1,000 bases of DNA from Escherichia coli (GCF_003334765.1 NZ_QOWT01000091.1), one strand, 5' to 3'. Positions 1 through 1,000 are shown, counted from the first letter of the stretch. A program made the numbers and translations. Notes: generated from the sequence alone by a model not told the origin.

Positions 1-1000
1 TCATTGCTGCCATTCATCGCGAATACAAGCAGACATGGAAAACACTGGATGACGAACTGGCCTACGCTCTCTGGCCTGGTGATGTGGATGCCGGAAACAT
101 TGACGGCAGCATCCATCGCTGGGCAAAAAATGAAGTTATCGACAACGACCGCGAAGACTGGAAGCGTATCTCGGCATCAATGCGCAAACAGCCTGATGCC
201 CTTCGCTACGACCGCCAGACTATTTTTGGCCTTGTCCGTGAACGTCCGATCGACATTCACAAAGACCCTGTGGCACTGAACAAATACATTACTGAATACC
301 TGACTACAAAGGGCGTGTTTGAAGATGAAGGAACAAATCAGAGCGCAACTGATACTCTCTCGTCGCCAGTACCAGAAACTGATGCAGTGGAAACGGCAAT
401 TCCGGACAACGAAAAAACCGAATGCAAAGTGGAAGTCGAACCATCTGTAGAACGTGAGGGGCCGTTCTACTTCCTCTTCACCGACAAGGATGGCGAAAAA
501 TACGGTCGCGCAAACAAACTTTCTGGTCTGGATAAGGCGCTGTCTGCTGGGGCTACTGAAATCACGAAAGAAGAATATTTCGCCCGCAAAAACGGTACAT
601 ACTCAGGTTCACAACAAAATACTGGTGCATCTGACACGACCGCACAACCAGGGTCAGTAAAAGTTACCGCTGACGAAGTAAACAAAATTATGCAGGCAGC
701 CAATATCAGCCAGCCTGACGCCGATGAACTGCTTGCAGTATCACGTGGTGAATTTGTTGAAGGGATTAGCGACCCGAATGATCCGAAATGGGTTAAGGGG
801 AACCAGACCCGCGATTCTGTGAACCAGAACCAGCAAGAAACGGAACAGAACGACCAGAAAGCGGAACAAAACAGCCCAAATGCGTTACAAAACGAGCCAG
901 AAACGAAACAGCCTGAATCAGTGGCGCAACAGGAAGTGGAAAAAGTCTGCACCGCCTGCGGTCAGACCGGCGGCGGCAACTGCCCTGATTGTGGCGCGGT
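1..1000 (+). CDS. recE: Internal fragment of a long CDS, partial at both ends (first complete codon at 3, last at 996..998); likely RecE-family exodeoxyribonuclease VIII of a Rac-like prophage, non-catalytic central region
   Basis: Hand translation of the frame starting at position 3 gives 332 consecutive sense codons with no stop, while the other two + frames are interrupted. Codon usage is typical of enterobacteria (GAA, AAA, CTG, CGC, GGC, CAG) and the + strand is purine-rich. The translated segments LLAVSRGEFVEGISDPNDPKWVKG (726..800) and KVCTACGQTGGGNCPDCGA (942..998) match my recollection of RecE. Confidence that this is coding is about 0.9; confidence in the RecE assignment is about 0.6 because it is memory-based and unverified. 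Confidence 0.8.
948..992 (+). other. Cys4 motif CxxC-x7-CxxC (C-TA-C-GQTGGGN-C-PD-C), putative zinc-ribbon or zinc-knuckle within the same CDS
   Basis: Read directly from the in-frame translation: Cys codons at 948..950, 957..959, 981..983 and 990..992, with a Gly-rich spacer between the two CxxC pairs. This spacing is characteristic of zinc knuckles. The window ends 8 nt after the fourth Cys, so the downstream context is not visible. Confidence 0.5.

Follow-up and report, generated by a model that had tools for sequence, protein, structure and literature searches.

The window analysed here, a stretch of 1,000 nucleotides (nt) of Escherichia coli DNA (GCF_003334765.1, NZ_QOWT01000091.1, positions 1 to 1,000), probably belongs to a modular early gene of lambdoid prophages, of which it encodes the non-catalytic middle. 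This gene would be the intact counterpart of ydfE, in which a central adaptor homologous to the centre of RecE is joined to a DEDDh-type head of predicted 3'-5' exonuclease polarity, and it has no RecT partner. The reading builds on the structure of the gene, the identity of its domains, its intact catalytic residues, its synteny, the constraint on its folded modules and the joining of the adaptor to three different heads. The gene is a RecE look-alike and not RecE, and the window alone cannot tell the two apart, because the similarity sits in a non-catalytic scaffold that they share.

An intact prophage gene encloses the window

The frame whose first codon begins at nt 3 runs without a stop across all 332 codons, and the five remaining frames hold 6, 25, 7, 13 and 7 stops. 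Given the composition of the window (A 31.6%, T 18.2%), the chance of one frame staying open over this length is about 1e-7. An initial annotation, made from the sequence alone, had placed the window within one long prophage gene extending past both edges, and the enclosing coding sequence (CDS) confirmed this. In strain 118UI (locus L001), where the window occupies 8001-9000, a CDS of 2472 nt (7298-9769; WP_113344110, 'exonuclease') encodes 823 amino acids (aa). Codons 236-567 of this lambdoid-prophage gene make up the window and correspond to window aa 1-332. Extending the sequence on both sides, as had been suggested, located the gene start 703 nt upstream and the stop 769 nt downstream. 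The whole window (1..1000, plus strand) is thus a segment of an intact ydfE-type 'exonuclease' gene, as indicated by the open frame and by 100% identity to the annotated CDS.

The gene is widespread. Megablast returned the full 1000 nt at 100% identity in many E. coli chromosomes; 4459 of the 5426 complete E. coli genomes contain some match to the window and 3602 match at least 80% of it, so that about two thirds of complete genomes carry the gene. At least 15 genomes match at 100%, and from among them strain 118UI served as our reference for gene context. The gene is ordinary, common and already annotated: it is called 'exonuclease' by RefSeq and by PHROGs (phrog_2082), Pfam families exist for its ends, PGAP names some copies '3'-5' exoribonuclease domain-containing protein', and the window itself shows nothing anomalous. 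A search of the window for internal DNA repeats found none. We also rejected the possibility that the stretch is decaying or non-coding, given its unbroken frame, the purifying selection acting on the folded modules and the occurrence of the gene in thousands of genomes.

Comparison with RecE

The likeness of the 3' third of the window to the central part of RecE, on which the initial annotation was based, held up: over 94 aa, window aa 239-332 share 63% identity with K-12 RecE 454-533 (E 1e-35). A weak match (26%, E 1e-5) pairs window aa 44-101 with RecE 294-351, and the middle third of the window has no counterpart in K-12 RecE. When the whole protein was compared by BLASTP, aa 262-625 aligned with RecE 278-591 (E 9e-61, 39%), with ~80% identity over the last 150 aa. 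At the DNA level, K-12 recE matches just window 889-1000 and the next 164 nt (276 nt in all, 83.5%).

Moreover, neither end of the protein is that of RecE. Pfam detected no Exonuc_VIII (PF06630) and no PD-(D/E)XK domain in the full 823-aa protein, and K-12 RecE, run as a control, gave both Exonuc_VIII PF06630 at 2-178 (E 1.4e-97) and a DUF3799/PDDEXK-like domain at 615-850. The cluster representative of the protein was not matched in a phmmer search with RecE 595-866. The NCBIfam equivalog for exonuclease VIII, NF007259, scored 273.7 bits, far below its curated cut-off of 1269, and its alignment covers aa 246-625 alone (model positions 271-602 of 877), beginning at aa 246 within the first module described below (M1).

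Like RecE (Rac, K-12 b1350), the window protein is a long modular prophage protein encoded in the early-left slot beside kil-type genes. The two share an M1-like segment, the RGEF(V/D)GISDPNDPKW motif, a four-cysteine zinc ribbon and an acidic stretch. RecE, however, has an Exonuc_VIII N-terminus, a PD-(D/E)XK 5'-3' nuclease at its C-terminus and recT as its next gene, whereas the window protein has a YdfE-type N-terminus, an extra module (M2), a DEDDh head and no annealase neighbour. A different architecture without a C-terminal PD-(D/E)XK domain, named in the initial annotation as refuting its reading, is what was found. The label 'RecE-family prophage exonuclease' is therefore right for a prophage exonuclease gene with a RecE-homologous, non-catalytic centre, but not for its filing under RecE, which the DEDDh head and the YdfE-type N-terminus contradict. 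The same filing was found in phage records, where the DEDDh-headed protein is labelled 'exonuclease VIII, ds DNA exonuclease' or 'exodeoxyribonuclease VIII' (phage Tritos TRITO_27, L010 2798-5269; ON470583.1 3924-4487, hit H43). It seems that the 'exonuclease VIII' name spread to these records through the shared central region.

The C-terminal head

The head (aa ~640-823, the last 180 aa) lies outside the window. A C-terminal PD-(D/E)XK nuclease had been expected here, and the family found instead is DEDDh: Pfam PF16473 (Rv2179c-like 3'-5' exoribonuclease) matches aa 642-813 over its full length (model 2-177 of 177, E 3.4e-67). It is the only significant Pfam domain of the 823-aa protein, besides which a weak RNase_T match was obtained. 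Rv2179c itself is a single-domain mycobacterial RNase, whereas the domain here is the head of a prophage protein.

The closest solved structure by sequence is that of T4 DexA (exonuclease A; PDB 8kel, E 1.5e-6), to which the head is 31% identical in a pairwise alignment. The DEDDh residues D646 and E648 (MIDLETMG), D746 (NFD), and H796 and D801 (HNALDD) all align with those of DexA (DFE, SFD, H..D), placing the head in the same family. The five catalytic residues of DexA are given as D7, E12, D119, H186 and D191 (PMC12153337); in our own numbering of the DexA sequence, the DFE motif has its Glu at position 9 (E9). In contrast to DexA, which is a stand-alone protein of 227 aa, the head is the last part of a much longer chain.

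The head was found in 1277 phage records, T-even dexA among them. In E. coli it accompanies the window closely, window plus head being co-linear at at least 80% coverage in 3607 genomes, compared with 3602 for the window alone. The head has a different fold from that of RecE and, judged by its family, is predicted to act in the 3'-5' direction, a polarity opposite to that of RecE.

Modules encoded by the window

We examined the organization of the central region with an AlphaFold2 model that covers aa 226-610 and draws on 40 diverse relatives (predicted template modelling score (pTM) 0.40), and with the ratio of nonsynonymous to synonymous substitution rates (dN/dS) calculated for one sequence pair, 118UI (L001 7298-9769) versus Tritos (L010 2798-5269). 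Over the whole window dN/dS is 0.32. The modules, all on the plus strand, are given below in order with their window coordinates and their predicted local distance difference test scores (pLDDT).

The window opens with M1, a five-helix domain (3..332, aa 236-345) modelled with high confidence (pLDDT 97-98) and with a dN/dS of 0.125. No other module of the family is as widely shared as M1, which occurs in 63 representative clusters and is distantly homologous to RecE ~278-351, the region of the BLASTP match to RecE 294-351 (E 1e-5). M1 is followed by linker 1, an acidic and polar, disordered segment (333..452, aa 346-385; pLDDT ~51) with a dN/dS of 0.66 at a dS of 0.6, whose length and sequence differ among relatives. 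M2, a small alpha/beta domain of beta-hairpin and helix (453..602, aa 386-435; 'EGPFYFLF...GRANKLSGL...EITKEEYFARKNGTY'), is again well modelled (pLDDT 90-96) and has a dN/dS of 0.033. It is without a match in K-12 RecE and recurs in relatives, mainly those with YdfE-type N-termini. A low-confidence linker (aa 436-457) and two short helices (aa 458-482) come next (603..743, pLDDT 39-76, dN/dS 0.46), where the Pfam DUF4072 match at aa 464-491 is weak and non-significant (E 0.15-0.44).

The conserved short motif RGEFVEGISDPNDPKWV (744..794, aa 483-499; short form RGEFVEGISDPNDPKW) has a dN of 0, and hence a dN/dS of 0, against Tritos. It is nearly unchanged in RecE (RGEFVDGISDPNDPKWV) and in many relatives, and a 45-nt DNA match of 95.6% to a 'RecE family exodeoxyribonuclease' gene (hit H42) spans exactly this stretch. 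Linker 2, rich in Gln, Asn and Glu and disordered (795..947, aa 500-550; pLDDT 42-46), has a dN/dS of ~1.4 on few changes. The window ends in the first part of a four-cysteine zinc ribbon, C551-x2-C554-x7-C562-x2-C565 (CTACGQTGGGNCPDCGA; 948..998), recognised in the sequence and modelled at pLDDT 72-76. The same four-cysteine motif occurs at RecE 514-535, where a Pfam Zn_ribbon_3 match is non-significant (E 4.8). The zinc ribbon opens a conserved segment that runs beyond the window to ~aa 625; past this block, the last one in common with RecE, the heads diverge.

Overall, the folded modules M1 and M2 and the motif are under purifying selection, and the linkers are looser (0.46-0.66 or more). 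Pfam gave nothing significant on the window alone (best DUF4072, E 0.15) and no significant match to M1, M2, the motif or the zinc ribbon. These modules had no relative by sequence in the PDB and no match by Foldseek (best E 0.89).

The coding strand of linker 2 shows a strong excess of A over T (AT skew 0.38-0.43). An antisense open reading frame of 161 codons (467-952, minus strand) lies over the low-complexity part of the gene. It is most likely spurious: with a coding strand rich in A and poor in T (AT skew up to 0.43), few stops are expected on the opposite strand.

Prophage context and the YdfE family

In strain 118UI the gene is preceded by ydfA/B/C-like genes, the DicF RNA, dicB and a DUF1482 (ydfD-like) gene. 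It is followed by genes for an excisionase (xis) and an integrase (int) and then by ompW; recT, which had been expected immediately downstream, is absent and xis and int stand in its place. The order is thus dicF-dicB-ydfD-[gene]-xis-int, and the reference locus lies at the ompW attachment site. Phage Tritos shows this arrangement too, at 89.6% nt identity, and neither an annealase nor a Gam is annotated anywhere in its complete genome. Full-length DicF small RNA was located at L001 6594-6645, ~1.36 kb upstream of the window (Rfam RF00039, 77 bits); it is missing from the RefSeq feature table returned for strain 118UI.

The Qin prophage of K-12 shows the same gene order (dicF-dicB-ydfD-ydfE-int), and its pseudogene ydfE corresponds to the first 256 codons of the gene. 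The 96% identity over these 256 aa, together with the matching synteny, places the protein in the YdfE family, the YdfE-type N-terminus being aa 1-235. In contrast to the intact gene, K-12 ydfE (L003 4079-4999) is interrupted by IS2E (4844-5549) at window codon 21 (nt ~63-65), which leaves K-12 with just the beginning of the window and without the exonuclease head. Precomputed Pfam assignments agree with this membership: PF27430 (YdfE_N) and PF27432 (YdfE_C) are recorded on a 570-aa N-terminal fragment that is 100% identical over the window. Fragments that span the whole window and neither gene end (P0003, P0005, P0017) carry no Pfam family. In some enterohaemorrhagic E. coli (EHEC) PPompW prophages, such as PPompW_EH1846 (L011 1798-4265), a deletion is annotated as shifting the frame of this gene, which is therefore intact in some copies, not in all.

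Head types and neighbouring genes across the family

A word-indexed homologue search returned solely near-identical, mostly partial E. coli entries. To assess diversity, we scanned 1.84 billion cluster representatives exhaustively with HMMER, which yielded just 153 related clusters, and the long representatives (at least 450 aa) were dissected by module-specific phmmer searches. Two types of N-terminus join the shared middle to DEDDh, PD-(D/E)XK and 'other' C-termini, with all combinations present. Proteins with a RecE_N (Exonuc_VIII-type) N-terminus carry DEDDh in 10 cases, PD-(D/E)XK in 13 and other C-termini in 18; for the YdfE_N N-terminus the corresponding numbers are 3, 3 and 12.

Most proteins of the 'other' class carry a third type of head: among their tails of at least 120 aa, 22 form one group with a shared domain of ~250 aa and the motif KKSLTDAxKKALSxLGFSADV. 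This third head gave just a weak Pfam match to Rad52_Rad22 (E 0.05-0.13) and no match by Foldseek; it is probably an annealase of the Rad52 fold.

The gene neighbours follow the head type. An identifiable RecT or RecT-like gene comes next to PD-(D/E)XK heads in three of four cases (K-12, P0138 and P0161; the remaining case is P0190), and xis/int directly follow the DEDDh heads in all four (L001, P0141, P0133 and Tritos). In both third-head proteins that were examined, the next gene is an overlapping Sipho_Gp157 gene, and the one such neighbour that was scanned, that of P0191, is 'Mu Gam-like end protection' by PHROGs. The neighbours of the three heads are accordingly RecT (usually), none and Gam-like.

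Since it is placed just before the heads and conserved at the DNA level, the block made of the zinc ribbon and the acidic stretch to ~aa 625 is a plausible homologous crossover point for head exchange. Between 118UI and Tritos, dS varies ~25-fold along the gene, from ~0.5-0.6 in linker 1 and M2 to 0.02-0.03 in the zinc ribbon and head. Such large swings indicate recombination mosaicism inside the gene, and their course from 0.02 to 0.6 fits the mosaicism that head exchange would leave.

Two linker motifs, G-x-G-x-F-S-[IV]-[ED]-x-L-[ML] and SNE[GV]EK[TE]E, recur in relatives with PD-(D/E)XK or Rad52-like heads (e.g., P0183, P0129, P0225, P0235 and P0218) and are both absent from the window protein. 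They may be partner-binding peptides.

Proposed function and alternatives

We propose that the central adaptor, in which M1, M2, the RGEFVEGISDPNDPKW motif and the zinc ribbon are strung on disordered linkers, would tether or target whichever DNA-end-processing head is attached to it. During the early-left programme of the phage, the head would shorten nucleic acid, most probably linear DNA, from its 3' ends. The slot of the gene would be the one in which lambda has exo-bet-gam and Rac has recET. A role in end processing or recombination is favoured over superinfection defence, because the gene occupies this slot and because its scaffold is common to a 5'-3' recombination nuclease and a probable annealase.

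Several points weigh against this proposal. The structural model was built on just 40 sequences (pTM 0.40), the dN/dS values come from a single pair, and the genomic context is drawn from a single one of the at least 15 genomes that match at 100%. Tethering and targeting are functions that we infer for the adaptor, and M1 and M2 have neither detectable structural or sequence relatives nor a known partner. The polarity and the substrate (DNA or RNA) of the head are predicted from its family membership, and Rv2179c, the founding member of PF16473, is an exoribonuclease. Moreover, EcD, an E. coli homologue of DexA, has been reported in anti-T4 defence (PMC12153337), which makes defence a live alternative.

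A bolder form of the proposal gives the central region a function of its own. It would be a self-contained adaptor carried by three mutually exclusive heads for DNA ends or single-stranded DNA, would tether ends or recruit a host factor, and would be the source of the unexplained advantage of full-length RecE in linear-linear recombination. We regard this as possible rather than probable.

It is unlikely, though conceivable on the precedent of EcD, that the protein is a defence nuclease of the HREX type, whose DexA-like head degrades incoming phage DNA containing 5-hydroxymethylcytosine (5hmC) while the long N-terminal part regulates or senses. EcD is reported to degrade 5hmC-DNA, to cleave T4 DNA and to protect against T4 (Kang et al., PMC12153337). 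The head is homologous to T4 DexA, and prophage early-left regions often hold exclusion genes, as for example sieB near relatives of the gene. Nevertheless, in an uncertain pairwise alignment at 31% identity, the 14-residue DexA segment that forms the loop with D169 (5hmC recognition) is gapped in our head, and the position of W152 is a Tyr. The termini of EcD (MIDTET.../...TIPETY) also differ from those of the head, and the cloning of EcD from the Met of MIDTET would fit a protein about the size of the head, as opposed to 823 aa here. Neither MIDTET nor IPETYD was present in any protein of the collected sets; when the EcD cloning primers were compared with IMG/VR, the 20-nt reverse primer gave one unrelated chance match (L004) and the forward primer none. 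PADLOC 2023 holds no model matching the protein, and the scaffold is common to recombination heads. Finally, the gene shares an operon with dicB, and the dicB operon is repressed in lysogens, which also argues against a defence function.

Quite improbable, in our judgement, is that the head is a 3'-5' exoribonuclease like that of Mycobacterium tuberculosis (Rv2179c), trimming host or phage transcripts. The best Pfam family is indeed named after this exoribonuclease, and the PGAP name given to some copies points the same way. However, both the scaffold and the genomic slot belong to DNA recombination functions, DNA ends are suggested by the zinc ribbon and by the partner heads, and the characterised phage relative DexA is a DNase (PMC12153337), although none of these arguments is decisive.

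The weakest alternative, a genuine RecE, that is, a 5'-3' exonuclease of double-stranded DNA with a C-terminal PD-(D/E)XK domain partnered by a downstream RecT, can draw on a homologous central region (up to ~80% identity over aa ~470-625) and on several database records labelled 'exonuclease VIII', but it has a negligible probability and is already refuted for the matched loci by the lack of PD-(D/E)XK and Exonuc_VIII domains beside a DEDDh C-terminus, the NF007259 score far under the cut-off, the downstream xis and int genes, the Tritos genome without an annotated annealase and the tie between window and DEDDh head in ~3600 E. coli genomes.

Implications for RecE

For annotation, the lesson is that similarity to the centre of RecE does not identify a protein as RecE. 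Our literature search on RecE with Rv2179c, on ydfE and on the Pfam names returned no functional study of ydfE-type exonucleases and no account of head swapping. The RecE-like scaffold with a swapped nuclease, and the head swapping around a shared adaptor, are a modestly interesting lead. The function of the large N-terminal and central part of RecE is an open question in recombineering. Here, a single scaffold is found to carry nuclease heads of predicted opposite polarity and, in other proteins, a probable annealase, with a separate neighbour rule for every head type, which makes the RecE question experimentally approachable.
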